Both the position numbers and the translations under genes were made by a program. DNA of 64,000 nt from a virus (lineage: Duplodnaviria; Caudoviricetes), in the IMG/VR virus record IMGVR_UViG_3300025706_000022, positions 1-64,000 of that record. One strand, 5' to 3'. This document shows, piece by piece, positions 2,496 to 58,712 of this stretch. The notes beneath the pieces were generated by a model that saw nothing but the letters and a program-made list of their open reading frames with translations, was not told the origin of the DNA and did no database searches. The first letter of the stretch is position 1; every line of letters begins with the position of its first letter.

Positions 2496-2847
2496 TAGGT
2501 GTTACTACGCTACCAGGACGAGATATCCCTGCTCTATCATCATTGAATACACCATTTAACTGACCATCTAGTATAATAGCGGCACCAGCCATGAGGTGGG
2601 CCAGATGGTGCACACCACTATCAGGCGCATAGTCTTCACCACTATACCAAGCTATAATATGCCGCATCATCGCATCATAGAAAGTTGAAGCCTTAACCTC
2701 AGTACCCCTCCAATTAAAGCGGCCATACTTGTCTGCCCCATTAGCCATTGCAGCACCTAAGGCCATAACTGCAATTGGTGGTATAGCTGCTGTAGTTGGC
2801 TTACCAATTGCTGCAGTCTCTTTGACATTAACTGTTGTGTTAACCAT
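2452..2847 (-). CDS. dATP/dGTP diphosphohydrolase-domain protein (DUF5664-like)
   Basis: K...IPP.A..ALG.AM..GA.KYG..NWR...YDA.MRH...W..GED...DSG.HHLAH pattern. Confidence 0.85.
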   Translation of the reverse strand: MVNTTVNVKETAAIGKPTTAAIPPIAVMALGAAMANGADKYGRFNWRGTEVKASTFYDAMMRHIIAWYSGEDYAPDSGVHHLAHLMAGAAIILDGQLNGVFNDDRAGISRPGSVVTPNEMYMYKQPVNKEQ

Positions 2848-3331
2848 TATTCACCTCATTCTTTCTATATTTAGTCATTGCAGCTTTTGCATCCTCTATG
2901 TTTACAAATTCGCCTAACCTGATTTGAACTCCATTTCCAGCATAGGCCTCTGCTCGCCACTTCTTATTATTTGCATGCCAATATACTCCTTTCATTCCTG
3001 AAGTATTGTTACTATACTCTCCTTTATTCATTAAGTTTTCTTGCTTAACACAGATTCTTAAGTTTTCAATTACGTCATTACTTCTATTCCTGTCAATATG
3101 GTCTATTTCTAAATTTTCGTCTAACGATCCAAAATGCATAACCCAAATAATTCTTGCCACATAGTAACATTTTCCCTTAAATTTAACTTGCCTATAACCA
3201 TTACTATTTTTATATGTTACCACATCTCCAATGCTAACTGCAGGGCAGGGATAAATTTTCCAAATAAGAAAGCCATCTTTGTATATAAATATGTTATGCC
3301 AGTCTTGGTTATAGTTGAGTTTAACAGCCAC
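2840..3331 (-). CDS. HNH endonuclease with AP2-like C-terminal DNA-binding domain
   Basis: EIDHIDRNRSNDVIENL, followed by NNTSGMKGVYW...KWRA...LGEF...EDA. Confidence 0.9.
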   Translation of the reverse strand: MAVKLNYNQDWHNIFIYKDGFLIWKIYPCPAVSIGDVVTYKNSNGYRQVKFKGKCYYVARIIWVMHFGSLDENLEIDHIDRNRSNDVIENLRICVKQENLMNKGEYSNNTSGMKGVYWHANNKKWRAEAYAGNGVQIRLGEFVNIEDAKAAMTKYRKNEVNNG

Positions 3332-3344
3332 CTATTACCTCCTT

Positions 3345-3373
3345 AGTAGGGCCACCCTAAGGCAGCCCTATTC
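3345..3373 (-). terminator. GC hairpin followed by CCTACT
   Basis: Minus strand ATAGGGCTGCC-TTAG-GGTGGCCCTACT, intergenic. Confidence 0.55.
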
Positions 3374-3376
3374 AGA

Positions 3377-3775
3377 TTACATCGATTCAACCAGCTTAGA
3401 CAGCTCATCGATAGACATTGCAGACAAGGCTTGATCTTGCTTCTGATCAATAATAGCCATGATCTTTTGCTTCTTCTCACGAGTCTCACGCTCAATACGG
3501 ATAGCATTAGCCTCATTGATCTTCACACTAATGATATACTTAACCAACTCAAATGCAAGCTTGGTATCATCATTGTTAGTAGTCACCGGAGTAACAAAAG
3601 AGACTTCTTCAGTCTCCTTAAGCTCATTGTGTAGATTACGAGCCACACTGTCAAGACATGCCTTACCTGCAGTAGAGACAAGCGGCAAGTCCCACAAGTC
3701 TTCAACAGTGAGCATACCCTTAGTAGTATCAAAACGGATCTTCTTACGGCTTGCCAATTCAAACATTTGTTCCAT
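3377..3775 (-). CDS. Conserved phage hypothetical protein, partner of the upstream 681-aa gene
   Basis: MFELASRKKIRF.T.KG.LTVEDLWDLPL N-terminus; start ATG 3775 with RBS. Confidence 0.7.
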   Translation of the reverse strand: MEQMFELASRKKIRFDTTKGMLTVEDLWDLPLVSTAGKACLDSVARNLHNELKETEEVSFVTPVTTNNDDTKLAFELVKYIISVKINEANAIRIERETREKKQKIMAIIDQKQDQALSAMSIDELSKLVESM

Positions 3776-8258: not shown

Positions 8259-8938
8259 GGTAAGTGCCTATAATTTTTATACGTAACAATATTCCAGATA
8301 GTGCCACGCTTGCAACCATATTGGCTACCTATCTGGTCGTTAGTTAGCCCCTCTTTTGAAAGTTTACGAATATTGGCGATATCCTCATTAGAGAACATTA
8401 CTTTTCCAACCCCTACCTTACTAACTTCAGAGGCTATACTATTGTCAGTTTTACTTATAAGCAGTTGATCTCTTTTGTTAATTGCTTCTTCAATGGTATA
8501 GGCAGTTGCATAAGCTTTTTTACCATTAACTATTATTTGTACCTTAAATGCTTGATGGTAATCGCTCCAATGAATATTTCTTTCGCCTAATTGATTATCT
8601 ACACGCGGAGCTATTTGGTTTTGTAGATTTATACTACTGGATACTTCACGCAAGTTCTCAATTCGGTTATCAGTTTTATTTCTATCAATATGGTCTATTT
8701 GCTTTCCAGGAGTAAGATTATTGTTAAACATGATCCATACTAGCTGATGAGTATACCAGAGTACCTTATCTATTCTAATACCGTAGTACCCATTAGCATT
8801 CATGAACCCTGCTTTTGCCCCCTTTCTGGCTAATGAAGAAACATTATAACGATAAAATAACTCACCACCCCTATACTCAAACCTCTCTAAGAGGAGCTCT
8901 CGTGTAGGGTGGGTTTCTTTAGAGAAGTTTGACATCAC
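8255..8938 (-). CDS. Free-standing HNH endonuclease abutting the DNA polymerase gene
   Basis: QIDHIDRNKTDNRIENL, AP2-like segment, C-terminal HTH-like module; stop overlaps the pol start. Confidence 0.9.
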   Translation of the reverse strand: MMSNFSKETHPTRELLLERFEYRGGELFYRYNVSSLARKGAKAGFMNANGYYGIRIDKVLWYTHQLVWIMFNNNLTPGKQIDHIDRNKTDNRIENLREVSSSINLQNQIAPRVDNQLGERNIHWSDYHQAFKVQIIVNGKKAYATAYTIEEAINKRDQLLISKTDNSIASEVSKVGVGKVMFSNEDIANIRKLSKEGLTNDQIGSQYGCKRGTIWNIVTYKNYRHLP

Positions 8939-12586: not shown

Positions 12587-12973
12587 TCAGATGAAATTAT
12601 CTGATTTGATACCCATGTGAGCCAAGCTAATATCTGCATCAATATGTGGTATGATAGCAGTATTCATTTCAATAAGCTTACGTAGTTTATCCTTAAGCTT
12701 CTCTGTTTCCTTTTGTTTAATACCAATAAAATCACGTTTATTTAAATCCTCAAGTATAGCCTTATACTCCTTAGTACTGCTCTTAAGTCTAGAAGATAGC
12801 TTTTCAAGACCCTCTAATGTTTGAATCTCCTCATTGGATGAAAGATGCATATCATTAATAACCTCTTCTTTAGTCATACCATACGCATCTGCAATAGCAT
12901 CTACTTTAAAGTATATCTTACCATCTATTACTCCAGTAAACTTATCTGGCATACCCACTCCTATAGAAAACAA
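12587..12973 (-). CDS. Hypothetical protein with possible KilA/Bro-like N-terminus and coiled coil
   Basis: IDGKIYF....IA.AYG; heptad-rich C-terminus. Confidence 0.5.
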   Translation of the reverse strand: MFSIGVGMPDKFTGVIDGKIYFKVDAIADAYGMTKEEVINDMHLSSNEEIQTLEGLEKLSSRLKSSTKEYKAILEDLNKRDFIGIKQKETEKLKDKLRKLIEMNTAIIPHIDADISLAHMGIKSDNFI

Positions 12974-15105
12974 TACTCAGCCTTAGCAACTTCTAGTATG
13001 TTGAAATTACCAGTCTTTACTTCCAAATCATCAATACCCAACTGTTTAAGAAGATCACCAAGAGGGTTATTGTAATACAACATAATGAAACTACTTCTGA
13101 CGTCTTCATGTAGTTGCTCCATACCACCAGCTAATGTACCAAATGAATCATGTACAGTTACTAGTGGCTCTTTACAATAATGTGCAGTAAGCATTAGATG
13201 TGTTGCATCCATACTATGCACAATATTTGGTGGTGCTCCAGTCTTTTGTTTAGAAGGACTTTCGCGTTTATTGTTATTATCTCGAATAGATAATGACAAC
13301 GTATCATCGTAGTATGGGGCCTTGACCTTAGTTAGTTCACCAATACGATAATCTTGCACTACTGGAAAATTAACTATAGGGGTATTCCATTCCAAAGATT
13401 TACCTACATTACCTTTGCGTTTACCAGCAGTTTCAAATAACTTAAGTAGTGCTACACTGGTAGGCATAGCCTGTTCCATGGTATCGTACACAATCTGGCC
13501 TAACCAAATAGCCCAAGCCCTGTCCATGCCTTCTAAATAATCAATACCATGCTTAGGAGCGTCTTCAATAATCTGTTCACCAGCCCCGAAACGGGTTACG
13601 CCATAGACCATTGTCATAACCCCTCTCTTAACAAGCTTTCTACGCTCATTAGCTTCTTTTACTTTCTTCCAATAAATTGGTGCAGCTTCTTTTATATGAG
13701 CTTGATACTTATGCTTAAATTCCTTTACTTCTTCATATAAATCCTTAGTCTCATCCTTATCAGCAGAGTGTATAATACCCTTACGTAGCCTACTGACTTC
13801 TTTTATTATCTCTTCTAGCTTATCAACATTATCTACCTTCATCTCATTTATACGTTTCCATACAAACTCAGAGATATACTTATAAAGATCTTGAACAGAC
13901 TTATTAGCGCAAAGATTAGTATGATAAGCAGTTTCTTCATCTCTAGTTAAAGCTGAGAGATGTTGACTTCCATTGTTGCTTCCGTCTACATAGCATATTA
14001 ACCGAGACACAAACTTCTCTACATCCTCACCGCTAGCACGCCATTGCTGAATGAGAGCTATTTCGATACAGGCAGCTAGAAATTGCCAGGGAGAATCTGC
14101 ATCCATCCAACCAGTAAACTCATCTGGGTTATTAGCATAGTTTAAGAATACGCCCATATTATCGTTAGCCCACTCTACTCTTTGCTCTAATGATAATTTG
14201 TCAGATTTAACACCATAAGTGGTCTTACCTGCCCAAGTTGATGCTAGGGCATGCTTAATCCACTTTTCACCATGAACACCAAGCTCCTTACCCTCAGCTA
14301 GTAGTAATAGACTCTTAGCTAAGTCAGTACTTTGTTCATTTAGAAAGCCAGTAGCGGGGTAACAACGGCCTCTAAAATCGAAGAAGTATTGATGATAAAA
14401 GACCTTGCTCTGTAGCTCTATACCTAGGTTTATGATAGTCTCAGCAAGTCTTTTCTTTGACTCTCTAGCCACAGGGTTAGAAGACTTGTAGTACTCCTTA
14501 AACACCTTAGTATTATCCTTAAAATGCTTAAGAGCTACTGATAGAATATTAGTATTGATTACCCATCCTCTATTGAATAATTTATGCATCATTTCAATAG
14601 CCATAGGCGTACTCGCCTCAGTCAACCTAGCCTTGCTCCTCCTTATTAGCTTCTTAATTGGAATAGGGCATGGCGTAAATGTAGGCTTGATTGCTGCTGC
14701 TCTAGGCCTTTCATCCCATAGGGATTTAATCTTAGACTCTTCTATATTTACAAAGATACCTTCATTATCTTCAATAATAACTTCGAATAAACCTACTAAA
14801 GAAAAGCACTTTAAGAAGAAACATCCAGTTTTACCTGCTGCATCTGGGAAATTCTCAAAAGAACTACCTGACTGCTTTAAAATAGTTTCACCTACAGTAG
14901 CAACGATAACATTTACATTTGTATTATCAGCCATTAGATATGTAGCTATCATATCAAATGCTATATCTGTAAGACGACTGATGCTTACGCCACTCTCTTC
15001 ATTTAAAAAATCCAGGAGAGGTGATTCAAATTGATCATTAAATGTCTGACTTTCTACTGCTGTATACAGTATCTCCCTCTTCACAACAAATTCTCCATTT
15101 GACAA
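12961..15105 (-). CDS. Single-subunit (T7-type) DNA-directed RNA polymerase with short N-terminus (RNAP2)
   Basis: FDFRGRCY; motif A DGSNNGSQH; motif B RKLVKRGVMTMVYG; PNIVHSMDATHL; motif C VHDSF. Start may be GTG 15084. Confidence 0.95.
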   Translation of the reverse strand: MSNGEFVVKREILYTAVESQTFNDQFESPLLDFLNEESGVSISRLTDIAFDMIATYLMADNTNVNVIVATVGETILKQSGSSFENFPDAAGKTGCFFLKCFSLVGLFEVIIEDNEGIFVNIEESKIKSLWDERPRAAAIKPTFTPCPIPIKKLIRRSKARLTEASTPMAIEMMHKLFNRGWVINTNILSVALKHFKDNTKVFKEYYKSSNPVARESKKRLAETIINLGIELQSKVFYHQYFFDFRGRCYPATGFLNEQSTDLAKSLLLLAEGKELGVHGEKWIKHALASTWAGKTTYGVKSDKLSLEQRVEWANDNMGVFLNYANNPDEFTGWMDADSPWQFLAACIEIALIQQWRASGEDVEKFVSRLICYVDGSNNGSQHLSALTRDEETAYHTNLCANKSVQDLYKYISEFVWKRINEMKVDNVDKLEEIIKEVSRLRKGIIHSADKDETKDLYEEVKEFKHKYQAHIKEAAPIYWKKVKEANERRKLVKRGVMTMVYGVTRFGAGEQIIEDAPKHGIDYLEGMDRAWAIWLGQIVYDTMEQAMPTSVALLKLFETAGKRKGNVGKSLEWNTPIVNFPVVQDYRIGELTKVKAPYYDDTLSLSIRDNNNKRESPSKQKTGAPPNIVHSMDATHLMLTAHYCKEPLVTVHDSFGTLAGGMEQLHEDVRSSFIMLYYNNPLGDLLKQLGIDDLEVKTGNFNILEVAKAEYCFL

Positions 15106-15120
15106 AAATAATATGATAAA

Positions 15121-15151
15121 AGTAGGAGGGAACGGCCCGAAGGCCGTCCCC
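15121..15151 (-). terminator. cUUCGg hairpin followed by CCTACT, just upstream of RNAP2
   Basis: Minus strand GGGGACGGCC-TTCG-GGCCGTTCCCTCCTACTTTT. Confidence 0.7.
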
Positions 15152-19074: not shown

Positions 19075-19122
19075 GGTAATACTCCTATTTAAATTAAACT
19101 ACAGTAAGTGATACCTCTTTCG

Positions 19123-19139
19123 ATATCATATAAGATGGA
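19123..19139 (-). promoter_or_regulatory. Repeated 17-bp motif TCCATCTTATATGATAT, candidate phage-RNAP promoter (copy 1)
   Basis: Identical copy at 21814-21830 and a 15/17 copy at 19705-19721; all intergenic and upstream of minus-strand starts. Confidence 0.6.
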
Positions 19140-19164: not shown

Positions 19165-19683
19165 TTATTTTGGATCAGGAACGTGAGTGTAAGATTTATT
19201 GTTACGAATGCTCCACATCGTTTTTCTAGATTGACCATAAGACTTTGCTAAGATTGTGTCTGACATATTTGGTAATTTCATTAGCTGCTTAATTTCAAAC
19301 ACTTGTTCATCAGTAAGTTTACAAAGCCAATTTGGGTACACTCGTTTACTGTCATCCCTTAATCCTGTTGAAATTGCATGCTGTTGTTGATGTGACCAAG
19401 AAGCCCACTCAAGATTAGTAAGGGTGTTATTAGCCTTATTACCATCAATATGATTAACTGAGGATAATTTATCGGGGTTAGGTATGAATGTTTCAGCAAC
19501 CATTCTGTGTACATGAATTGTAATTGCTTTTCCACGAAGCTGCCCCCAAAGTCTAACTAGTCTATACCCATCCTTATTGGGTGCAGGGTTTAATTGAAAT
19601 CCGGTGTTTATATTTTTAACATTACCAAACGTAGAGATTGCATAGTGTGTACTTCTAAACTGCTTCCATATTTCTTCAATCAT
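19165..19683 (-). CDS. NUMOD4/HNH endonuclease related to the two intron-encoded HNHs
   Basis: E.WK......Y.IST.G.V; VHRMVAETFIPNP.....VNHIDGNKANN...NLEW; C-terminal KLT.EQV HTH. Confidence 0.9.
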   Translation of the reverse strand: MIEEIWKQFRSTHYAISTFGNVKNINTGFQLNPAPNKDGYRLVRLWGQLRGKAITIHVHRMVAETFIPNPDKLSSVNHIDGNKANNTLTNLEWASWSHQQQHAISTGLRDDSKRVYPNWLCKLTDEQVFEIKQLMKLPNMSDTILAKSYGQSRKTMWSIRNNKSYTHVPDPK

Positions 19684-19704
19684 AATTTCTCCTTGGATAT
19701 TTGT

Positions 19705-19721
19705 ATATCAATTAAGATGGA
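19705..19721 (-). promoter_or_regulatory. Candidate promoter motif TCCATCTTAATTGATAT (copy 2)
   Basis: 15/17 match to the other two copies; directly upstream of the HNH RBS. Confidence 0.55.
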
Positions 19722-21707: not shown

Positions 21708-21813
21708 GATAAATCTCCTAGAAGGAAAATTGATAACAACGTTGTTGCCTGTGCAACATATTAGTAGGTACAGGCTTCCCCACTAAAACAAACACTTTTG
21801 ATATAATACTTCT

Positions 21814-21830
21814 ATATCATATAAGATGGA
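21814..21830 (-). promoter_or_regulatory. Candidate promoter motif TCCATCTTATATGATAT (copy 3)
   Basis: Identical to 19123-19139; lies between the last tail gene and the secreted-protein block. Confidence 0.6.
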
Positions 21831-42953: not shown

Positions 42954-44138
42954 TTAGCTGTGGAAGATCGGGAGAATACCCAGGGTAAGAGCAGAGGTAG
43001 CTTTACGAACAAAAGCACCCTTATCACCAACAGCAACAGTAGCACCAGACAGATCACGCATAGCAGAACCACCAGTACCAATCTGCATGTAATCTGCATC
43101 AGCAACGAAGTTGTCTTCATCACCGTACCAAGAATAACCACGCGGATGGACGATATAGCCCCAACGATACCAAACATCAGTAGTACCACCACCCATAAAG
43201 GCAGATGGAACGTGGCCAATCTCAACCGGCATAGGAACAGCCAATTGGTTAAATGCCAGACTGTTAGGCATAACAATAAACGTGGTCTCTGGTCCAACCA
43301 GATCAACACCAGCGCCAGTATTAATGGCAGTACGTTCAGCAGAGGTCAGGCCTTGATTAGCACGTGTAATAATCAAGCGGAATTTACCGGAGAAAATGGT
43401 TTCAAATTCAACCATACCATCGGTAACACGAGTTTCATCAACCAGATTAGCAGAACGAAGCGAAGCCAACACCTTGGGCGATACAACAAGGTAGGCATAG
43501 GCAGGCTCATAATCCTTCCAACCCATACCCATAGCGGTAAGGAAGGCTTCAGCGCGAGCAGCACCTTGTTTAGCAGCATCAGCATCAACGATAAGCTTAT
43601 TCAAGCCCATATCAACGTACATACCGTACTTCTGATCTTCTGGGTTATTATCAAACGTTTGGCCACCAAGACCAGTTGCACCAGAGCCAGAACCAGCACC
43701 ATTCAGCAGCTCAGAGATAGCAACACCCTTCAGGACAGACAAGAGTGCGTTATGCTCATCTTGAGTGCGAGTCTCAGCAAAATCACGACCAATCTTAGCC
43801 AGGCCGTCTTCTTGCGTAACAACTTGCTTCATATTGACTTGTTCAGCACCATGCGTGCGAACCGTCTTAATGTACTTAGCATAGTTTGAAGACTGGGTAG
43901 TCTTAGTACCAGCAGTTGCATCAGTAAGCGAAGCAACGTTGATAACAGGCTTCAGCGGCTTTTTCCAACGAAGTTGACCAACAAAAGTTTCAGTATTGGT
44001 GTCAATGTCGGCTTGAGCACCGGCAATACCAGTACCAACCAGTTTCTTAGCATTGGTGTATGCTTCATCGGAGTAGGCAGAGATAGCCTCTTGCAGAACC
44101 GAATCAGTTGCACCGGGGATATTAGTACGAGCAGTCAT
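42954..44138 (-). CDS. Major capsid protein
   Basis: 394 aa, follows the scaffold gene, strongest codon bias; ..RWGYIVHP.G.SW ending. Confidence 0.85.
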   Translation of the reverse strand: MTARTNIPGATDSVLQEAISAYSDEAYTNAKKLVGTGIAGAQADIDTNTETFVGQLRWKKPLKPVINVASLTDATAGTKTTQSSNYAKYIKTVRTHGAEQVNMKQVVTQEDGLAKIGRDFAETRTQDEHNALLSVLKGVAISELLNGAGSGSGATGLGGQTFDNNPEDQKYGMYVDMGLNKLIVDADAAKQGAARAEAFLTAMGMGWKDYEPAYAYLVVSPKVLASLRSANLVDETRVTDGMVEFETIFSGKFRLIITRANQGLTSAERTAINTGAGVDLVGPETTFIVMPNSLAFNQLAVPMPVEIGHVPSAFMGGGTTDVWYRWGYIVHPRGYSWYGDEDNFVADADYMQIGTGGSAMRDLSGATVAVGDKGAFVRKATSALTLGILPIFHS

Positions 44139-44157: not shown

Positions 44158-44886
44158 TTATTGCCTTTGGTTTGGTAGTTTACCTTCGGCAGCAAGTTTG
44201 AGAACCTCTTCTTGCGTTCTAGCAAATAGAGATTTGGGAGTACTATTAGGCGTTCCAGTAGGGGTTTGAGTTCCGCCACCAGAGCTAGCCTTTGGCTTAA
44301 GCAAGAAGCTATTAGCCTCGTCTGCAACAAAAGTAGAAATAAAGTCCTTAATCGAAACACCAGAGCGATGAACCCAGTTGTTTTTATCATCTTTGATTAC
44401 TTGGCCGATAACCTCATGAAAAGCCATATCAGCTGCTTTTTCATTACGGAACTCAGTAGAACGTAACAGATCACGGACCTGACTATCACGAGTAAGTTCA
44501 AGAACTCGTTGTTCTAATGTAGTATGCTTACCAAGTAAATCATTGTAAGCAGCATCTTTTTCTACGAGCTTCATTTCGTATACTTCCTTGTGCTTACCTT
44601 CTTCTTCCAATTTCTTAAGCTGAATCTCGCGTTCCTTCTTCTCAAGCTCCTCTGCCTTTTTGAGTGCAGAATCACGAACAGAGTAGGCGTTATCAAGTTT
44701 AGTCTTGATATCTTTTAATTGTTCAGCAACCTTTTCAGCAACAAGCTTTGAAATCATGTCCTGATCGGTGTTGCCACTTTTATTTTGGTCATCATTCTTA
44801 CCGTCTTGATTCTTACCAGCATCCTGATTAGTACCATCAGCATTCTGATTCTTATCTTTCTGGTTGTTTTGATCTTCAGTACTCAT
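44158..44886 (-). CDS. Capsid scaffolding protein
   Basis: Low-complexity N-terminus, coiled coil, ...FLLKPKAS.GGG; start ATG 44886. Confidence 0.8.
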   Translation of the reverse strand: MSTEDQNNQKDKNQNADGTNQDAGKNQDGKNDDQNKSGNTDQDMISKLVAEKVAEQLKDIKTKLDNAYSVRDSALKKAEELEKKEREIQLKKLEEEGKHKEVYEMKLVEKDAAYNDLLGKHTTLEQRVLELTRDSQVRDLLRSTEFRNEKAADMAFHEVIGQVIKDDKNNWVHRSGVSIKDFISTFVADEANSFLLKPKASSGGGTQTPTGTPNSTPKSLFARTQEEVLKLAAEGKLPNQRQ

Positions 44887-45052
44887 TTTACTACTCCTAT
44901 GGGACACAGCCCGGTTAATTGTGCTATAGCTACATTCTATAGCATACTGCAAAGAAAATATAGTGGGAAACCAATTGAGGGGACAGTACCTCTAAAGAGG
45001 CGGGAGAGAAGGCTTATCAGCCATTACATGGCCTATCCCACTATCAAAACTA

Positions 45053-48000
45053 TTAGCCTATTCCATAGAAGCCTTTATCATGCTTCCAAAAATCAGGCGG
45101 TATATCTTCTAGAATATCCTCAGCTTTGAGAATATCCTGTTCAGTCATAAGTCTTCCACCAACTTTACTTTTTCCAGCTATTGGAATAATACCTTTTTCA
45201 ATGGCCTCTTCCAAATACTGATCATAAAGCTCTTTAGGTAATCCACGCTCACGCAGAAGATCTAATGTAGCCTTTACTGTATTTTTCGTAACAGCATCAG
45301 CATACATTTTTCTAATAGCCGTCTTAGCCTTAATCATATCACCAGCATTAGTGAAGAAAGCCGAAATATTCAACAAAGGTCGTTAGTCTTTGCCCGTTAC
45401 TGTCGAGTTAGTTAATAATTCTTCCAAGTATTACCAATTCGTATTTGACGAATGGTAGAAGGGTGCGATCCAAATTCTACAGCTATTTCTGCATCTAACT
45501 TTCCATTTTTGATACATTCTCGTATATAAGGTACATCCTCTGCAGTTATCTTTCTAGTCCTAGGTGCACCATTATAACGACCAGGGATAGTCAGACCTAG
45601 ATGCTTCCAGTTGTCACCAATCCTAATAGCGTTTATAGATTGCCTAGTAACACCGTATTCATCTGCAATCTCTTGATCTTTTTTGCCAGCAAGCATTAAT
45701 TTAATTATAGTAGGTATTTCTGACTCTACTAATACCGACTCAACCCTATGTGAACCGCGTGGCATTAACCCAGTATCGTATGCGTGCTGAACATTTTCAC
45801 TGCGAGTTGCCCATTCTAGATTAATTACATGGTTATGTAACCTATTCCCATCAATATGATTTACATCTGATTTAGAAAAGGGATTTGGTATAAAAGCCTT
45901 TGCAACCAACCTATGTAGCTTTTCTGTGCGTCTAACACCATTGTATGATATATGAAACTGCCTATAACCACCTACGATATTACCTAATGTGATGCACCCA
46001 TTAGAGCCACAATATAGTCTACCATGGTTACTAATAGAATAGTTTGCATCACCAACTTGTTTCCATTCTTCTTGCATGTTTACTCCTTGTGCTCGACAGC
46101 ACTGCTGCATATTACTATGCAGACTAGACTATATCTTCAAAGTAAATACATGTATTTACGATGTCCCCCGTTTCCACTCACTTGAGTGTACTGGCGCAAT
46201 GCCATAGTCGTTACACCTTCCTTATTTCTAAGGATTGGCTCGGTATTGTCCTAACGAAGGAGTTTCACCGAATTAGAGGGATTTAACCACAACAAAATTT
46301 ATCGTGGATACTAGTTGTTTCTATACCATTACGCTTACCCCATAAAGCAAAGTTCTTAACTAGAGTAGCATCGTTAGAGTGATTGCCATTGACGGCATAT
46401 GCCGTTCTAGCAGACACTGCATCAGCTACTTCATTTATTTTATTACTCTTATTAACTAACTCTTCAAACCAAGTGGGATCAGTTTTATTATCTACTTGAA
46501 TAATATTAGTGATCCAGTTACCATCAGCATCCTTATAATTAAGCCTTTCCTCAAATCGTTGGGTATAATATTGCTCCAACACACTACCATCAAGGTTCAC
46601 CCAAGGCACATGTGTCCAACTCTTAGGTTGCTTATTGGGTAACCCCAACTCAGCTATATCAATATCTTTGTAAACATCACCCACCTGAAGCTTAATATCA
46701 AACTTCTTACCAGTAGGTCTATAGCCCTTGTCCTTAACCCCAAATAGTATATCAGAGATGGTACTATCGGGTTTATATCCAGGTATACGTTTAAGGATTT
46801 GTTCTCGATAAGATACCTTTGGATCTATTCCTAGTATCCAAGCTAGCACAGGATGAGGCTTAGCCCCTTCTTTATACTCACCAAATGCGGTTTTCTTCAT
46901 AAGGCTTACCCAATCAAACTCAGCTTTAGAAGGCTTTGCTGTTAACAGAAAGTCTTGTGCCAGCCTACCGAAGAACTTAGTAAAATCATTCAAAATAGGT
47001 ACACGATTAGACATATGCTCAGACATGATTGCACCTATCTGAGCAAAATCTTTGGGCGTAACTACTTCATCATAATCCCTAGTAAGCTTCTCTACAAAAT
47101 CCTTTGTTTTAGGATCAAGGAACCATAAGTCAGACATCAAGTCATCACCTGGCCTAGTTCCACTATCAAATATGTCTTTGACCTGTTTACGAAGCTGCAT
47201 TAGTTCGTCTGCAGTATCTTGATCCCAACGTGCTATTTTAGCAGCACGGGCAGAGATTTCACCCAATACAGCATCGCGTTCCTCAGCTTTAATTACTAAG
47301 ACACCATCATCTTTACCTAAAGCCTTAGCTAATTTCTTTTCTACATTCATGGTAGCAGTTCTCTGTCCGGCGCCGTATAGAGAGACCATGTTATGCGCTT
47401 TTGACAATGTGTTAACAAGGGGTCGTTAGTCCCCTGTCATAATTTATTAGTAGTTCTTCCAGGTATTTCCTCTACGAATTTGGTTTATGGTTGCAGTTGC
47501 TACACCAAACATAGGTGCAATATCGCAATCACGTAATGTGCCAAATAAGCTTCGAATAACCGGTATATCTTCTCCAGTTAACTTCTTAACTGGGCCATTA
47601 CCTATAATCGGCTGTCTTTCAATAAATCGCCAAGTACGGTTACATCGAATATCATCAATTGTATTTGGGGCCACGTTATACTTTTTGGCAAGAGTAATAT
47701 TTCTATCACCAGCCTTTAAGGCATCAATAATTTCATGAACTTCTGTTTCTAGAAGGATATGCATATAGCTACCTTCTCCAGAAGCAATTAACCCTAATTT
47801 TACAGCATGCTCATTATTCTCTGTAGGAGTACACCACTCTAGGTTACTAGACTTATTATTAAGCTTATTACCATCAATGTGGTTAGCCCAGGGCTTACCA
47901 TCTACCCTAGGTATAAAGGCCCTAATAACCAATTTATGAACATCGATAGTTATCCTATCCTTACGAGAGGTAAACTGTATACTAACTTGTAAGTATCCTC

Positions 48001-51000
48001 TAGCAGTAATGAAGGGATTAAGAATGAAATCAGTGCTATTGTTGCGAATACGCCCCAGATTGCTGACACTATACATGCCTTCTGTGTCTGGGATAATACG
48101 AAATTCTTCTGTCATAATGACTCCATGGGTGTGTAAATTATGCTGCATATTACTATGCAGATCAGACTATATCTTCAACAAACAATGTTTGCTGTCCCGC
48201 GTTTCCACTAGACTTCTAGTGTATGAGATTCATAATCCGTTCTGGACCGTATTCTCTAGTCGTTGAACCTTCCAAAGAGTCCCCTCTAAGGCTTGGCTGC
48301 TGATTGTCCTTTAACGAAGGAGTTTCCAGCAATTAACGGGATTTTACAAGGCCACAAGTTTAGCCTTCCTTAAATCCTTCTCGCTTAGCCCCAATCTTTC
48401 ATTAAGCTTTTTAAACCTAGGATCATTAAAGGTCATAGAAGCAATCTCGTCATAGAGACGCCGCTTCTGGTTAGTAGGAACAACATTACTAAGTTCTGCT
48501 AATTGCTTATTCTTAGTAGACAATGCAATAATCTGAGCACCAGAAGATGAAGCATCTTGCTCTAGAGCTACTTTAATCATATAATTATCAAGTGGAGTAA
48601 GATCTTTGTAACTGCCACCTAAAAATTTATCAATGCGGTATTGTTCAAGGGCAAGCCTAAATAACTTTCCCTGTTCTTCAGCATCCGCCATCTGAACGAT
48701 CTTAGATTCAAGGATATCACGAATATCCTGAGGCTTTTGTCTTTCTATACGTTTACCTAATAAAACAAGATCAGCACGCCATTTATCTGCAATCTTCTGC
48801 CTACCAGTTTGAGAGAGACCATTAAAGCGTCCTTCAAACTCATCACTTAGGCCACCTAAGAAACCACCTATCTGGTCTTGTAGGTTATAATATCCATCAA
48901 TACCTAAGGGTTTAGCTTCTGGTGTATTTAAGAAAGGACGAAAGGACTCACCAGATTGTGGTCCAATGTAGCCGCTATCATATATGCGACCGCGATGATC
49001 AATGAAAGCGTGATTACTAAAAGACATATCGTTCTTAACATAATGTTCCATAGCCTTAAATCTATCGTATGCATCACCACGAGCAGTCATGTGATCACGA
49101 TAATGATTCAAATCATTAAAATACTTAGCCTTACCCTTATCGTCTTGGAAATCCAATAACTTTCTCGTAAACCCATAAAACTCAGGATCTACTTTATACT
49201 TACTATTGCTATACCAATTAAGGGCATCTGCTAATGGTTCGTCAATTAGCTCTGCAGGTATTTCAGTGAAACTACTTGAAGATGTAATTGGTATTTGTGT
49301 ATCATATCCGCCCTTAGCAAAATATGTTTTGAACCCAGGTTTAATATATAGTTGGTTATCATATCTATTATTCACACCAATACGATAGCCTACATCGATA
49401 GCACGATTAAGGTATGAGTAGTGCTTAATACGAGCATCGGTAATCCTAAGATTTACACTAAATGTATCGTAGTATTGACCAAAGTATTGACCACTCATAC
49501 GACTACGCATACGCCTTTTCTTAACACCAAAAGTATCTAGTGTATAAAATCCTACTTTTTGAGCATAATCTAAGATTTCTACACCTGCATCATACCATTC
49601 TTTTTTAGATCCACGAAAATTAGTAGTATTAAATAGATCTCTTCCTAATTCAATGGCTAGTTGATCCCTATCAGGGGCATCATCCATTGCTAACCGTTTA
49701 GCAAACCTCAAATAGAACTGCTGAGTTTCAAACTTACCTAATCCCTGAAATACTCTACGCATTTGAAGTTTCATAGGTAATTGTGTTTTTAAGAAGATAT
49801 CTACTGTAGAACGTAACTGTAGTGCTATAACGGGTAATTGTCTAGCTTCCCATAGATTACGCTCTTTAATATTAGCAATAAAATTCTTGCCCAAATCATC
49901 TAATTGTATAGGGCCAAGAACAGGATCAAGATACTCACCTTGCTTAATCTTGTAGAAGAAGTCAGAATTATTTCTTAACTGTGTCTCAATAAACTCTGAC
50001 ACGTTAGTAACACTATTCTTCATTTCTGAGTTAAGAACAGCCTTAAGATTACCCCAAGGCTTTCCTTGTTTACGAAAACGCTCAAATGTTACACGAAGAT
50101 TATCAGTGACAACTGCAGCCTCATTCATGCCTACAGACTTCTGTATTTCTATCTTGAAATCTTGTAGGAACTTCTTATCATCTGCGGTTAATACTGTGCT
50201 TTCATCAATAAGCCTAACAGCGCGTTTATCAGCAGCCATATTAGGTTGATAGATGCGGGCATCCTCTCTACGCTTAGTAATAGGATTATATATTAGCTGA
50301 TCTTCAGTTGGAGGGCTGTTTAGAACCCTATTCTTAGTACCAGCCTTTACATGAGGTAGAATACCACGATAGTTAGTAACACTTAAAGTACCATTTAGCT
50401 CACCAGACTGTAGTTTATAATACTCTACGAGTTTGCTAACGGCCTCTTTATCTCTAAGTATTTCAAGAGGGGATGTATATCCCAGTGTAAGTGTGTCCAG
50501 TCTTTCTTTTGCATTCGCGAATACTTTACTAGTAGCTTCTACGCTACCGTTATAACCACCTGCTGTATTATTATCACCAGTTAGTAGCTTAAGCTCATTG
50601 AGACCTACACTAGCACCCTTAGGTGTTATAAACCTCTCAGCTGTAAGCTCATTATTTTGGAACATCTTAAGGCGATGCATATCTCCTAGATGCATTAGCT
50701 GAATTCTATCTGGTTGTTTCTTTAACCAATCATTATAAGAAATAGTGTCATAAGGTGTTCCAGTAAAATAACTAGAGGCATACTTATCATAGGCTTCAAT
50801 CTCTGCTTCCGACATTCCAGCTGTATTACGGGCTCTAGTGGCTCTTACAGAATCAACTTTTGCTAAGTCTGCCCAAGCCTTAGGAACAGGTATTGTAGTA
50901 GACCTACACCTATAATGTTGTGGTGGTAAATGACCAGTATCAGAAACTGGATAGATATTTCCATCCATATATCTGCATACTGGAGTAGTTCTAGTGTCTA

Positions 51001-51634
51001 ATACCGCGGCGTATTGGTATCCTTTCAAGTATTTGCTATTCTCTGCATATACTTGCTGGTCTACTTGTGCATACACACTAGTAATCCCGGTAATAACAAT
51101 ACCTTCACTATGTACACGAGTAAGATTAAACGTTTTAGATACACGTTTAATCATTTGTTCTTCAGTTAAGCCTTCAGCTAGGCCGCCTCTAATAGCAGCC
51201 TCTATACGCTTACGCTCATTTAAGCCAATGCCTTTCCAACCTTCTGCAAGAGTCTTATTAGCATAGAGAGGTTGTGTTAATACTATCTCGCTAGCAATAG
51301 CACGAGTAGGTCTCTCAGGCTCAAAGAAATCTCTGAATGACTTATTGAGAGTATCTAAAGAACTTACTTGTGCTTGATTACCAAACTCAATAAAACTTTT
51401 TGCATTATGGCGATACGCTGTTTCTGTAAATCGCCTTATCTCTGCATCTGTTGCAGGGCTGATCGGCATTTCTTTTGAATAGTTTCCAGGGAGTATTGCG
51501 AGCATTCTAGTTTCATGGTCATCAACTAATGCTAATGTTTGTGCGGTAACTCGCTCTGTATAAAGTCGAGTCATAGCAGCATCATGTATGGTTTTATCAC
51601 CAGCAACCTCGACCGCTGTCTTTTCTACTTTCAT
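45053..51634 (-). CDS. MuF/SPP1-gp7 head protein fused to T7-type RNA polymerase; join(48362..51634, 46301..47404, 45053..45361), 1561 aa
   Basis: MuF motifs AVLD.RTT..C...DG and PPQHYRCRS; RNAP DHRGRIY; motif A DASSSGAQ. Splicing restores motif B RKA|SKAHNMVSLYG and motif C IHD|AF. Confidence 0.9.
45362..46300 (-). mobile_element. Group I intron 2 (IA-type), inserted in RNAP motif C
   Basis: P1 CCACGAU/GUUGUGG with U.G at the splice site; P3 TCCCTC/GGGGGA; P4 TCGGT/ACCGA; P7 GACTA/TAGTC; AAGATATAGTCT; terminal G. Confidence 0.93.
45412..46077 (-). CDS. Intron-encoded NUMOD4/HNH homing endonuclease
   Basis: LHRLVAKAFIPNP...VNHIDGNRLHN...NLEW; two C-terminal HTH-like repeats; start ATG 46077. 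Confidence 0.92.
   Translation of the reverse strand: MQEEWKQVGDANYSISNHGRLYCGSNGCITLGNIVGGYRQFHISYNGVRRTEKLHRLVAKAFIPNPFSKSDVNHIDGNRLHNHVINLEWATRSENVQHAYDTGLMPRGSHRVESVLVESEIPTIIKLMLAGKKDQEIADEYGVTRQSINAIRIGDNWKHLGLTIPGRYNGAPRTRKITAEDVPYIRECIKNGKLDAEIAVEFGSHPSTIRQIRIGNTWKNY
47405..48361 (-). mobile_element. Group I intron 1 (IA-type), inserted in RNAP motif B
   Basis: P1 AAGGCU/GGCCUU with U.G at the splice site; P3 TCCCGT/GCGGGA; AATTGCTGGAAA and AATCAGCAG; TCAACGACTA; AAGATATAGTCT; terminal G. Confidence 0.94.
47447..48115 (-). CDS. Intron-encoded NUMOD4/HNH homing endonuclease
   Basis: VHKLVIRAFIP...NHIDGNKLNN..SNLEWCT..EN..HA; two C-terminal HTH-like repeats; start ATG 48115. Confidence 0.92.
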   Translation of the reverse strand: MTEEFRIIPDTEGMYSVSNLGRIRNNSTDFILNPFITARGYLQVSIQFTSRKDRITIDVHKLVIRAFIPRVDGKPWANHIDGNKLNNKSSNLEWCTPTENNEHAVKLGLIASGEGSYMHILLETEVHEIIDALKAGDRNITLAKKYNVAPNTIDDIRCNRTWRFIERQPIIGNGPVKKLTGEDIPVIRSLFGTLRDCDIAPMFGVATATINQIRRGNTWKNY

Positions 51635-51708: not shown

Positions 51709-53259
51709 TTATTTTGCTGGAGGCTTAGCAGCTAATTTACTAGCTGTATTAAGACCATCCTCATACTTCTGTGCAGAAGGTACAATATTCTCATCTTCGT
51801 TAATTTCGTCTTGAGCCTCATCATCATTATACTCAGGACTAAGCAACTCATTAGCCTTAAGAAGACGAAGCCATTCACTACGAGGTATAAGACCTTCTTT
51901 GTAAATCTCAGTCATCAGTCTAATATAATCTTGACCAATAGCTGTAGGATCAAAATCTGGACTTAATGTAAATATAACATCATTATTTGTTAATCCAAGG
52001 TCATAACGACGATTAAGCATATACACAATAATACCACTAACTACCTCGCTGAGCTTAGTATTGAGTGTACCAAGAGTAGCAACTTGAGCAGCGCTACGAA
52101 TAGTAAGTGCTACACCAGATTCAGCCGTTTCAGGTGCTAAGAATCTAATCCCTAGCTTAGCTAACTCATCCATTTTGGATGCAATAGCTGATTCTAAATC
52201 TTTAAGGGCTTCCGTAGGTGGTGATAAAGAACCAATCTCATCACCCTTACGTAAACGAATCCAAGTGCCTAACCCCTGATTAACGATTTCTGTAAAGTCC
52301 TCATCAGGCATATCACTAGCAACCCATGGAGTATATGTAGCAGCGCCATAAAGTAAGTGGTTACGCCTGGACATTACATTATAGAGTGCTTGTTCCTTGT
52401 CCACAAAAGTTGTGATATAAGGCTCAATAGCATCAATATTGCCATTAGCAGGATAAGCAGGAATCGTTGTCATCAGCTCACCATGCATCCTGGGCTGGAT
52501 AAGGCTAACTTGTTTAAATCCAGAGGATTTACTAGGTTGAGTCTGACCTTCAATAAGAACTGGGTTAGCTTCACCTTCAAGCTCAAATACACGTATTTGA
52601 TAAGCATTGTCAATTAATTCATGAACCCAGATAGTATCCACCACATATGGATGGAATGCTAGTGGATCAAGGTATTTATCCACATAACCTCTTACAATAA
52701 TCCTACTAAGAACTCGTTTTCCATTTATAGTAGTAGTTTGCCAATTAATAACATTTTCAGCTTGCCAAATTACTGCATATGGCTTAACTTGCTTAAAATC
52801 GGCTGAATCCATTGCTGCTATCTGTTCTTCAGATAACATTGGGTAATCAACATAAATCCATGCTCTACTAGTTTGCATTTCTTCATTAAGAAGTTTATCT
52901 AAGAATGCTATTAAACTACCACCCTCAACTGTAAAATCAGATTTAATCCATTCCATTGCCTCTTCCGAGACTTCTTTCTTATATTCTATTTGTGGAGGCT
53001 TCCTGAGAAGACCACCGATAACTACAGAGATAAACTGGCTAGTAATGCCAGGTAGCTCAGCCTCTGCCTTAAAGAAGGCATACTGCTCTAGGCTCATTGT
53101 TGGTGAAAATGGAAGTAAGTAATTCTTAGCATTGGGTAGTATATCAGCATCCTTAACATATTGCTGACTATGAGCAAAGGCTCTACACTTTTTCCATGTA
53201 TCTACCAGAGAGTCATAAGAATCACATGGTTCATTAACTTGAGTTTTAGCCTGTGCCAT
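51709..53259 (-). CDS. Portal protein
   Basis: 516 aa, downstream of terminase; Y......A...G....; Q...YN..S...H.LY..A; acidic C-terminus. Confidence 0.88.
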   Translation of the reverse strand: MAQAKTQVNEPCDSYDSLVDTWKKCRAFAHSQQYVKDADILPNAKNYLLPFSPTMSLEQYAFFKAEAELPGITSQFISVVIGGLLRKPPQIEYKKEVSEEAMEWIKSDFTVEGGSLIAFLDKLLNEEMQTSRAWIYVDYPMLSEEQIAAMDSADFKQVKPYAVIWQAENVINWQTTTINGKRVLSRIIVRGYVDKYLDPLAFHPYVVDTIWVHELIDNAYQIRVFELEGEANPVLIEGQTQPSKSSGFKQVSLIQPRMHGELMTTIPAYPANGNIDAIEPYITTFVDKEQALYNVMSRRNHLLYGAATYTPWVASDMPDEDFTEIVNQGLGTWIRLRKGDEIGSLSPPTEALKDLESAIASKMDELAKLGIRFLAPETAESGVALTIRSAAQVATLGTLNTKLSEVVSGIIVYMLNRRYDLGLTNNDVIFTLSPDFDPTAIGQDYIRLMTEIYKEGLIPRSEWLRLLKANELLSPEYNDDEAQDEINEDENIVPSAQKYEDGLNTASKLAAKPPAK

Positions 53260-53597: not shown

Positions 53598-54992
53598 TTA
53601 GAAAGCAAATCCTCTACTAGAAGATCTACGGTGTTGAATTGGCCAATGATAATCAAAGTAATACCTGATACCATCAGAGAAGTGCTCTACATCTTGACTC
53701 TTGTCAATCATAGCAGTATCACTATTCTTATCTACCCACTGGGTACGAGCTAGTGATTCTATTACTGGTCTGCATTTAGCAGATACAAATGCATATCTAT
53801 TACCAGGCTTTTTAGTACGAGGGTTACTAGCAGTCTTAAATCTAGCATTAGTAGCATTAACACTATCTACGATAGGTGGATGTGCTGATTTAGCTAGTAC
53901 ACTAAACCCATACGATTCTAATATAGTAAAGTCTGTGGTACCTACTACAGCGCTAGTTTTAGCAGAACGACCTGAAGGATCAGGATAGCAGTAGATAGAG
54001 CTAGGAGGCCTGTCACTGTTAACAAATCTTCCATAAATAGTGGCAGCCAGTTGTTCTGTATCAGCACTGCCTTGGATATAATCAAAACAGCCAGTAAACT
54101 CACCACGCTTAACCCAGACACTACTACACTGTTTCCGCACGTTAAAGTCGATAGCAATATGCACAGGCTCGCCATCACCTGGAGTAATAAGGCCTTCTGG
54201 TACAACATTATTTTTCCTATCAAAACAGTAAAATACATTATTACCCGAATCTTCAAACCTGGCAAGATATTCTCTTGCAAATCTGATCGGATCCATATTA
54301 TTAGAGCTACGCTCTACTTCCTCTACATCTAAATATGGTGATTTGGTGTAGTCGTAATGATAGCTCTTCCAACGATCATCTGTTTGGCTATTATTAAATA
54401 AGTCAAAGAAAGTATCATAACCCTTAGGTGTGCTAATACACATAAACCTACCAGGATTAACTTCCATCTGCTTACCAGTATATTCAAAGATCTCTCTAGC
54501 AAACTCAGCGGCCCTTTTAGGGGACCACCGAGTGTCTATAGTAGGCATAAGAATAGATTCAATCATATCCTGCTTAGCTGCTTCTTTCATGTCAAAGGAA
54601 GTAAGCTCGTCTACTAGCACGAAGTTATTACCCTTACCGCGTTGACGCTCAACAGCTTCACCTGATACTAATCTTAGCTCTACATGATTAGGGAATCTAA
54701 AATACCCTTTATCTCTACTGTACTGTACTGCATGTGACTCTAAGCCAAACTGATAGGCCAACAGAGGGTAATAAATATCCACTGTCTGGCTATATGTAGG
54801 GCATACGATAATGGCATTCTTATTAGGAATCCATTCTGGTAGCATGCTTAGCTCACCTACTATCTGTGAAGCTGAGGCAGCCCCTTCTACTGACTTGCCC
54901 CAACCTCGAGATGCACATACTACAGTATGTCTATGATCTTTCTTAACGAATGTATCATGAAACACTTTTGATTGAGTAGGGTGTAATTTCAT
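53598..54992 (-). CDS. terL: Terminase large subunit
   Basis: Walker A ASRGWGKS; Walker B VLVDE; ISTPKG; F.REYLA.F; nuclease AIDFN and EHFSDGIRY. Confidence 0.95.
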   Translation of the reverse strand: MKLHPTQSKVFHDTFVKKDHRHTVVCASRGWGKSVEGAASASQIVGELSMLPEWIPNKNAIIVCPTYSQTVDIYYPLLAYQFGLESHAVQYSRDKGYFRFPNHVELRLVSGEAVERQRGKGNNFVLVDELTSFDMKEAAKQDMIESILMPTIDTRWSPKRAAEFAREIFEYTGKQMEVNPGRFMCISTPKGYDTFFDLFNNSQTDDRWKSYHYDYTKSPYLDVEEVERSSNNMDPIRFAREYLARFEDSGNNVFYCFDRKNNVVPEGLITPGDGEPVHIAIDFNVRKQCSSVWVKRGEFTGCFDYIQGSADTEQLAATIYGRFVNSDRPPSSIYCYPDPSGRSAKTSAVVGTTDFTILESYGFSVLAKSAHPPIVDSVNATNARFKTASNPRTKKPGNRYAFVSAKCRPVIESLARTQWVDKNSDTAMIDKSQDVEHFSDGIRYYFDYHWPIQHRRSSSRGFAF

Positions 54993-58008: not shown

Positions 58009-58614
58009 CTAAAGCTCTTTCCAGGTTCTTTTACTTCTAGCCTTCATTACTGTAGCCCTCTGAACATTGAGTTTCTTAGCTAAGGCTGCATTTGATTCAG
58101 TAGAAGAGCGTATAGCTAATACATCATTTACTGTTAATTTAAAACCAACTCCTGTGTTACCCCTACCCTTATTAATCATATCAGCTACATTATCTGCTTG
58201 TGTACCAGCAAATAGATGCTCTATATTACAACACTTAGGGTTATCACATTTATGTAGTATATACAAATCAGTAGGGCCATTATGCTCCACCCATACTATC
58301 CTATGTACTCTTAACGAAGTACCGTTTGTATAACCAGCATAGTTTAACTGACCATAACCATCACCATCAAGAGCACCCTGGTATTCAATACAACCAGTCT
58401 CTTTATTAGTAACACACCTAGACTTAATATAATCAAGCACATGAAGGCCAGTCCTAGTCTTCTTTACTAGAAACCCACATTCAATTGCCTTATAGAAGTG
58501 TCTTAAACAATAACCCCTAGTGTTTACTTTATTAGAACAACAGTTGAGATTACATTGACCATTATCTTTAACAATAGTATGCCTCTCAAAGAATTCTTTT
58601 GTACATTCAAACAT
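58009..58614 (-). CDS. Free-standing HNH endonuclease
   Basis: GYGQL...RVHRIVW...G....ILHKCDNPKCCNIEHLFAGTQADNVADM; C-terminal KLT..DV HTH; start ATG 58614. Confidence 0.9.
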   Translation of the reverse strand: MFECTKEFFERHTIVKDNGQCNLNCCSNKVNTRGYCLRHFYKAIECGFLVKKTRTGLHVLDYIKSRCVTNKETGCIEYQGALDGDGYGQLNYAGYTNGTSLRVHRIVWVEHNGPTDLYILHKCDNPKCCNIEHLFAGTQADNVADMINKGRGNTGVGFKLTVNDVLAIRSSTESNAALAKKLNVQRATVMKARSKRTWKEL

Positions 58615-58712
58615 AGTAACTCCTGTTACTCTCCATAAGGAACAAGTAGGCAAGTAAGTGGAGAGCTTACAATTCGGGGATCAACCTAGCCTACTTGTAA
58701 CTAGTTATAGCA

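Follow-up and report, generated by a model that had tools for sequence, protein, structure and literature searches.

We analysed a window of 64,000 nucleotides, positions 1-64,000 of the 75,571-bp IMG/VR virus record IMGVR_UViG_3300025706_000022, which is rated complete. One gene of its head module (45053-51634, minus strand) was found to encode a MuF-type head protein fused in frame to a T7-type single-subunit RNA polymerase (RNAP). The gene is interrupted by two group I introns, and the spliced product predicted from it has 1561 amino acids and 177.7 kDa, with no internal stops. According to the structural models described below, residues 1-352 are a complete MuF protein, more than a motif, and residues ~575-1561 are a whole T7/mitochondrial-type single-subunit RNAP, including the N-terminal domain. 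Judged by its sequence relatives, the fusion is both ancient and common.

Domains of the fusion protein

An AlphaFold2 (AF2) model of residues 1-720, made with 31 aligned relatives, had a mean predicted local distance difference test score (pLDDT) of 86, rising above 90 in the MuF module. Together with motif alignments, it resolved the part of the protein that lies ahead of the first intron into the following features:

50579..51634, minus strand: MuF / SPP1-gp7-type head-morphogenesis module, residues 1-352; the Pfam core, residues 143-248, lies at 50891-51208
50528..50572, minus strand: disordered linker, residues 355-369; nowhere else inside the AF2 model of residues 1-720 does pLDDT fall below 50
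49910..50527, minus strand: conserved domain of about 200 residues, residues ~370-575, confidently folded in the AF2 model and N-terminal to the first T7-RNAP-aligned residue
48980..49000, minus strand: T/DxxGR motif DHRGRIY, residues 879-885, aligned to DWRGRVY of T7
48533..48556, minus strand: motif A DASSSGAQ, residues 1027-1034 with the catalytic Asp 1027, aligned to DGSCSGIQ of T7

An earlier reading of this DNA from its letters alone (the sequence-only reading) had claimed that the gene starts with a MuF domain. This was confirmed, as the open reading frame (ORF) of exon 1 (48344-51634, minus strand) contains a Phage_Mu_F domain together with the strings YAAVLDTRTTPVCRYMDG and PPQHYRCRS. 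Pfam PF04233 (Phage_Mu_F) matched residues 143-248 with 50.9 bits against a cut-off of 29.6, and with 55.8 bits in a six-frame search of the genome. The PHROG head morphogenesis family phrog_241 covered residues 86-349 (E value 5e-55). When the N-terminal model was searched with Foldseek against BFVD, whose targets are predicted structures, the top match was a protein of the roseophage DSS3_VP1, followed by dozens of stand-alone head morphogenesis or minor capsid proteins. These stand-alone MuF matches, of about 360 amino acids, were covered over their whole length, with E values down to 1e-13 and template modelling (TM) scores up to 0.71. Fold searches of the PDB with the same 720-residue model returned generic helical-bundle entries only, which were uninformative on MuF, and recovered no solved MuF structure. 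The AF2 model and the BFVD matches nevertheless showed that the N-terminus does model as MuF.

The PF04233 match of the fusion protein is the only one in the complete 75.6-kb genome, so whatever head role MuF plays in this phage falls to the fusion protein. Behind the linker, the domain at residues ~370-575 matched no Pfam family and has no counterpart in T7 RNAP; the first T7-RNAP-aligned residue is model residue ~176-180, equivalent to residue ~575.

From this point the protein continues in frame into a single-subunit RNAP, and here too the sequence-only reading was borne out. DHRGRIY and DASSSGAQ are both present, and motifs B and C are restored on splicing: motif B (R1089/K1093/Y1101-G1102) spans the first junction, and motif C (H1458-D1459) is formed by the last two codons of exon 2. 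All four motifs aligned with their T7 counterparts. Across the family, the catalytic Asp of motif C and the Tyr of motif B are invariant, and the Asp of motif A and the Lys of motif B nearly so. A profile of 35 family sequences searched against the PDB matched T7 RNAP (E 1.5e-25), mitochondrial RNAPs (~1e-22) and N4 RNAPII (1.7e-6), and the virion RNAP of phage N4 (N4 vRNAP) was not listed in this search. Since there are more than 400 homologues and the profile matches T7 RNAP at this level, chance is excluded as the source of the architecture.

Simpler searches performed far less well. A single sequence barely reached T7 RNAP in phmmer (E 0.38, at the DxxGR motif), and the window's exons taken singly scored 14.4 bits with Pfam RNA_pol (PF00940), against a cut-off of 22. 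The same Pfam family gave 47.6 bits with P0002, an intron-less metagenomic homologue of 1563 amino acids, and 25 of 30 full-length relatives scored above the threshold. The exons fall short because the introns cut the two best-scoring stretches, and the polymerase is thus hidden from Pfam. Since single-sequence and single-exon searches barely see the RNAP, relatives carry no annotation beyond 'head protein' in their records.

The fold was compared using an AF2 model of P0002 residues 400-1563 (pLDDT 83, predicted TM score 0.77). Foldseek matched this model to mitochondrial and T7 RNAPs with E values of 6e-17 to 1e-15. VIA-align superposed it on T7 RNAP with a Z score of 28.4 and a root-mean-square deviation of 3.4 over 525 residues, spanning T7 residues 41-882. 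Z scores ranged from 24 to 28 for T7/mitochondrial RNAPs, compared with 13.7-16.1 for N4 vRNAP chains. All catalytic positions are intact in the fused RNAP.

Introns and splice map

Viewed as ORFs, the fusion gene consists of five pieces, of 1096, 233 (NUMOD4/HNH), 374, 232 (HNH) and 107 amino acids. The predicted splice map is as follows:

48362..51634, minus strand: exon 1, 1091 codons, encoding MuF, the linker, the extra domain and the RNAP from its N-terminal domain to the middle of motif B, motif A included
48362, minus strand: 3' end of exon 1, where tblastn with P0002 stops; the exon terminal ...AAGGCU pairs with GGCCUU of the intron
47405..48361, minus strand: group I intron 1 (Rfam RF00028), 957 nt, within motif B between A1091 and S1092
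47447..48148, minus strand: homing endonuclease gene of intron 1, 233 amino acids (Pfam NUMOD4 and HNH_3)
46301..47404, minus strand: exon 2, 368 codons, delimited by tblastn with P0002 and encoding the rest of motif B (K1093, Y1101, G1102), the fingers, the NGNHSND histidine and H1458-D1459
45362..46300, minus strand: group I intron 2 (Rfam RF00028), 939 nt, directly after the codon for the catalytic Asp of motif C
45412..46110, minus strand: homing endonuclease gene of intron 2, 232 amino acids (Pfam HNH_3 and helix-turn-helix)
45053..45361, minus strand: exon 3, 102 codons (45361-45056) plus stop, AFFTNAGDM... to the C-terminus, matching P0002 residues 1462-1563 in tblastn

RF00028, whose gathering score is 50, matched at 48143-48413 (99.7 bits) and at 46105-46368 (89.2 bits), and these two group I matches are the only ones in the genome. 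Splice junctions were set by P1 pairing with a U.G wobble, by the terminal G, and by exact collinearity with the intron-less P0002. For intron 1, P1 is AAGGCU/GGCCUU with a U.G wobble, placing the 5' splice site after 48362 and the terminal G at 47405; for intron 2, P1 is CCACGAU/GUUGUGG, again with a U.G wobble, with the 5' splice site after 46301 and the terminal G at 45362. The tblastn alignment of P0002 to the three exons broke exactly at the predicted splice sites. Furthermore, the joined product aligned to P0002 as one ungapped high-scoring segment pair (71.9% identity, residues 3-1561), and the length of 1561 amino acids obtained from the splice map and this collinearity agrees with the figure given by the sequence-only reading. 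On this map, intron 1 splits motif B as R1089-K-A / S-K1093 ... Y1101-G, and intron 2 is inserted at H1458-D1459 / AFF.

The ribozyme cores of the two introns are paralogous, with paired changes in their stems, and their endonucleases share 39% identity. In the sediment DNA run X5, we found a related phage that is collinear on both flanks and carries a different insert, of 1085 nt, starting exactly at 48362 (window 47382-48362). The position of this insert independently supports both the 5' boundary of intron 1 and intron turnover, and the comparison points to turnover of an intron or endonuclease at one site within the population. In the family, motif B is a hot spot for insertions, since about 40 of 120 homologue clusters (P0001-P0120) end within P0002 residues 1093-1104, at several distinct positions. 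Four further clusters end at residues 1413-1433, and none of the 120 ends at the motif C site used here. With other group I introns that carry HNH endonucleases in phage polymerase genes, the two introns share a ribozyme core followed by an HNH ORF at the most conserved catalytic codons; here, in contrast, a single RNAP gene has two paralogous introns, one at motif B and one at motif C. In two metatranscriptome libraries, the contigs covering the junctions were unspliced only; these may derive from DNA or precursor RNA, and contigs drop rare forms.

A polymerase so divergent from canonical RNAPs, as the marginal single-sequence match to T7 RNAP indicates, and with an active site interrupted by two introns, might be a relic without catalytic activity, retained for DNA binding or ejection. 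We consider this very unlikely. DxxGR, the motif A Asp, the motif B Arg/Lys/Tyr-Gly, the NHSND histidine and the motif C His-Asp are all present, the catalytic positions vary little or not at all across the family, and removal of the introns restores the motifs exactly.

Two side observations concern the mobile elements. One low-depth contig of the RNA library X4 joins 45195-45198 to 46298-46301, so that its junction coincides with the predicted 5' splice site of intron 2 on one side and falls 163 nt inside exon 3 on the other; the shorter side of the contig is 27 nt with adapter attached, and the contig may be an artefact. Besides the two intronic genes, there are at least six free-standing genes of homing-endonuclease type (HNH, NUMOD4 and SegE-like GIY-YIG), one of which follows immediately on the family A DNA polymerase gene (6288-8258):

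2840-3331, 8255-8938, 19165-19683 and 58009-58653 of the window: free-standing homing-endonuclease-type genes
2736-3458 and 3630-4184 of L005: free-standing homing-endonuclease-type genes

Head module, second polymerase and relatives

PHROG matches gave the order of the head module on the minus strand as terminase large subunit, portal, MuF-RNAP fusion gene, scaffold, major head protein and head-tail adaptor, with these members around the fusion gene:

53598..54992, minus strand: terminase large subunit gene (phrog_2, E 6e-30)
51709..53259, minus strand: portal gene, directly upstream of the fusion gene (phrog_145, E 4.9e-53; weak match to Pfam DUF4055)
44158..44952, minus strand: head scaffolding protein gene (phrog_206, E 5e-12)
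42954..44138, minus strand: major head protein gene (phrog_247, E 7e-16)

The fusion gene therefore sits where the sequence-only reading had put it, in the gp7/MuF slot after the portal gene, and is followed by the scaffold/capsid genes. This position is stable, as a portal homologue lies immediately upstream of the fusion gene in 44/44 related loci with enough flank. The minus strand holds 87 of the 97 ORFs of the genome. One ORF, of 2219 amino acids, is of tape-measure size, and relatives carry siphovirus names, which indicates a long-tailed virion.

Megablast of the locus against phage records gave zero matches. At the protein level, homologous clusters at 90% identity number more than 400, mostly of 1490-1560 amino acids and with both Pfam domains, and a full phmmer scan of 1.84 billion representatives yielded 159 clusters at 50% identity. 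In the near-full-length phmmer hits, the RNAP part always stood behind an N-terminal extension of 630-960 amino acids. Pfam detected MuF in 31/31 diverse family members, down to ~20% identity, and RNA_pol in 25 of them, confirming that the combination of Phage_Mu_F and RNA_pol is widely distributed. No additional domains or inteins were found by Pfam in the longest members. Relatives are encoded on at least 539 IMG/VR contigs. This DNA is present in sequencing runs from activated sludge, sediment, river water and anaerobic digesters, the last being its likely source. Among named phages, EBPR siphovirus 1 gp47 is 47% identical and likewise interrupted by an HNH gene, and the uninterrupted 1463-residue 'minor head protein-like protein' (QGH74596 in DSS3_VP1) of the cultured roseophages DSS3_VP1/PM1 (Naomviridae) is the same fusion. 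In the Pelagibacter phages Kolga and Aegir the fusion is absent: they encode a related MuF as a stand-alone protein and, separately, a related canonical RNAP. This suggests that the RNAP cargo was joined to MuF within this lineage.

The genome of the window also encodes a second polymerase:

12961..15105, minus strand: canonical single-subunit RNAP gene, 714 amino acids (Pfam RNA_pol, 258 bits)

This enzyme matched mitochondrial RNAP (1e-49) and T7 RNAP (1e-39) in the PDB, has complete motifs (FDFRGRCY, DGSNNGSQH, K..YG, VHDSFGT), and also matched the PHROG 'N4-like RNA polymerase' family. Its closest phage relatives are the 'RNA polymerase' of DSS3_VP1 (37% identity) and the RNAP of Pelagibacter phages Kolga/Aegir. 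The pair of fused and canonical RNAPs was also found in 3/3 near-complete relatives and in DSS3_VP1/PM1. We rejected the idea that the cargo is a recent duplicate of the phage's own RNAP, as the two enzymes are only distantly related and barely alignable (hhalign E 7e-4; phmmer). The 714-residue RNAP is presumed to be the non-virion polymerase of a two-polymerase relay.

A motif of 20-22 nt, CCATCTTAWWTGATATMSAA, with an SP6/T7-promoter-like end, occurs in three intergenic copies (19119-19138, 19701-19720 and 21810-21829, minus strand). Downstream of the motif comes a block of small genes, which a strong terminator closes just ahead of the canonical RNAP gene; the sequence of the motif was not conserved in three related genomes. 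The terminator (15128-15151, minus strand), a hairpin-plus-U of 10 pairs, 8 of them G-C, stands immediately upstream of the canonical RNAP gene and is preceded by a 636-nt stretch of only tiny ORFs with good ribosome-binding sites.

Two further genes were observed outside these modules. Downstream of the DNA polymerase gene, a 681-residue protein (3786-5831, minus strand) matches phrog_1735, a family without a known function, from end to end (E 1e-257). A gene of the dCMP/dCTP deaminase family is located at 327-773, minus strand (PF00383, 78.9 bits). In related Naomviridae, deoxythymidine is replaced by deoxyuridine via a deaminase and an HD-family dTMP phosphatase. An HD-domain (dTMP phosphatase-like) gene was looked for in this genome and none was found, so a uracil-DNA genome like that of DSS3_VP1 is not supported here.

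Proposed delivery with the virion and comparison with known systems

The explanation that we regard as probable is capsid packaging, ejection and early transcription by the MuF-RNAP protein, followed by a relay to the canonical RNAP. The fusion gene would be expressed late with the head genes, and both group I introns would be spliced, restoring motifs B and C. The MuF module would then dock the 178-kDa protein at the procapsid portal, like SPP1 gp7, and a few copies would be enclosed with the DNA. At infection, the fusion protein would exit via portal and tail, with or before the DNA, and its RNAP would transcribe the first phage genes independently of host RNA polymerase and of new protein synthesis; it may additionally help to pull the genome in. 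The canonical 714-residue RNAP would take over later transcription. Such steps have precedents: in portal-terminase phages, MuF proteins form part of the head, and fusions to MuF have been interpreted as injected effectors (PMC5512222); in N4 (PMC4496689) and P23-45 (bioRxiv 10.1101/2022.12.01.518664), infection begins with a virion RNAP, which in P23-45 is a tape-measure fusion. The odds of delivery and early transcription are raised by the fusion protein being the sole MuF of the genome, by the retention of the fusion down to ~20% identity, and by the presence of a second, canonical RNAP.

We weighed two other roles for the fused enzyme. The genome of T7 is pulled into the cell by transcription, by host and T7 RNAP. 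The protein described here could similarly be packaged and ejected to act mainly as a mechanical device, a portal-proximal polymerase that pulls the genome in by transcribing the leading DNA end, with expression minor or a by-product. Architecture and conservation fit this equally well, the concentration of 87/97 ORFs on one strand suits one-directional, transcription-driven entry, and MuF at the portal would set the enzyme beside the last-packaged, first-ejected DNA end (by analogy with SPP1 gp7, PMC5512222). Mechanical pulling is, however, compatible with early transcription, as entry-coupled transcription yields early RNA anyway, and the record, being a linear metagenome assembly that lacks terminal repeats, does not reveal the polarity of the genome ends. 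We consider it unlikely that pulling is the main function.

Alternatively, the polymerase might never be delivered. Inside the producing cell, MuF could keep the RNAP on portals or procapsids, for example coupling late transcription or concatemer processing to packaging, or cleavage of the linker could leave only MuF in the head. The gene does sit among late head genes, and the disordered linker at residues 355-369 is a plausible cleavage site, but the head module, where the scaffold is a separate protein, showed no recognisable prohead protease gene. The canonical RNAP could also serve all gene classes if host RNAP made the first transcripts, and one good sigma-70-like site lies at 58939. Sigma-70-like sites scoring at least 10/12 were nonetheless equally frequent on the coding and the opposite strand (12 versus 12), and a regional scan was not above shuffles. 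Furthermore, the maintenance of a second complete RNAP on MuF across 159 clusters would be hard to explain if it were discarded. We accordingly judge non-delivery to be improbable as well.

Several points weigh against delivery and early transcription by the fused RNAP. For every family member, virion incorporation, ejection and polymerase activity are putative, and the papers on DSS3_VP1 contain no virion proteomics and make no mention of RNA polymerase. The fold test was done on the 72%-identical homologue P0002 rather than on the window's joined protein. Splicing of both introns is deduced from the sequence; neither the 48362/47404 nor the 46301/45361 joint was present in the contigs of the two RNA libraries, although contigs cannot show absence. 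No promoter class could be assigned to the fused RNAP, as the sole clear repeated T7/SP6-like motif, in three copies, could serve either polymerase. Finally, a 178-kDa protein must at least partly unfold to pass a siphovirus tail.

Giant phiKZ/AR9-like phages and crAss-like phages carry RNAPs in their capsids. Altogether, capsid-borne RNAPs are known from few phage groups, among them N4-like podoviruses (PMC4496689) and the Thermus phage P23-45 (bioRxiv 10.1101/2022.12.01.518664). In function, the closest parallel is N4 vRNAP (gp50, Schitoviridae), likewise a T7-superfamily single-subunit RNAP encoded among virion genes; it travels in the capsid, is ejected and transcribes the early genes, after which a second phage RNAP follows (PMC4496689, PMC5512222). 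The two systems thus share the pairing of a structural-module RNAP with a separate compact RNAP. They differ in polymerase lineage (Z 28 to T7 versus 14-16 to N4 vRNAP for the enzyme described here) and in size (~3500 amino acids for N4 vRNAP versus 1561 here). N4 vRNAP has an MPTase domain and an N4-like late-gene neighbourhood (PMC5512222), whereas here the carrier is MuF, in a siphovirus head module. Pfam found Phage_Mu_F and RNA_pol only, and no MPTase domain, in 31 family members and in the longest forms. Packaging of N4 vRNAP has been shown, whereas here it is proposed, and for a long-tailed virion. Since the RNAP lineage differs, the MPTase domain is absent and the carrier is another, the fusion protein does not belong with the N4-type vRNAPs; its families are MuF and the T7-type RNAPs. 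The contrast with the N4 route drawn by the sequence-only reading therefore holds, for polymerase lineage, MPTase domain and virion type alike (VIA-align, Pfam; PMC5512222).

With MuF effector and toxin fusions, which bear C-terminal ADP-ribosyltransferase (ART), RNase, RelA/SpoT or other domains, our protein shares a portal-adjacent MuF with an enzymatic C-terminal cargo, a layout that has been interpreted as capsid delivery (PMC5512222). The structural neighbours of the N-terminus in BFVD include the ART-bearing MuF protein of Xanthomonas phage Xp12. In those fusions the cargo is a toxin or host-modifying enzyme, whereas here it is a 1000-residue template-dependent polymerase for the phage's own gene expression. 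P23-45 resembles our phage in being long-tailed, with an RNAP delivered as a fusion to an exiting structural protein and followed by a second, non-virion RNAP (bioRxiv 10.1101/2022.12.01.518664). Its enzyme is a two-barrel RNAP on the tail tape measure, in contrast to the right-hand T7-type RNAP on a head protein described here. With T7/mitochondrial RNAPs the fused enzyme shares the fold and the catalytic motifs over the whole enzyme (T7 residues 34-883), at only ~15% identity; unlike them, it has an N-terminal extension of 575 residues (MuF, linker and extra domain) and its gene lies in a late head module.

A 2017 survey of MuF and N4-RNAP fusions reported no RNAP cargo on MuF and found N4-like virion RNAPs only in N4-like phages (PMC5512222). 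Full-text literature searches, together with PMC8323127, PMC5512222, PMC12697855 and PMC10783043, yielded no description of a MuF-RNAP fusion. MuF as a cargo carrier and virion RNAPs are each known, and their combination is undescribed in the literature searched. On balance, we favour the view that MuF-RNAP fusions form a distinct and widespread class of virion RNAP, ejected via a long tail, that supports a host-independent two-polymerase programme, arose independently of N4 and extends to the uracil-DNA Naomviridae. A virion RNAP in the latter would presumably parallel that of the uracil-DNA Bacillus phages PBS2/AR9. The system would be an N4-like polymerase relay, independently built from a T7-lineage enzyme and a MuF delivery tag.

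The intron-split gene shows why routine annotation overlooks such a polymerase. T7-type polymerases that are compact, very divergent and new in their promoter specificities may be obtained from the family, and since the cultured Ruegeria phages DSS3_VP1/PM1 carry the same fusion, the proposed role is directly testable. If it proves true, MuF-carried T7-type RNAPs would add an abundant group to the known capsid-borne enzymes, represented on at least 539 viral contigs of marine, river, sediment, sludge and digester origin. The MuF cargo system would then be able to deliver a template-dependent machine of 1000 amino acids, beyond small toxins, and this would explain how infection could start without host transcription in these siphoviruses.

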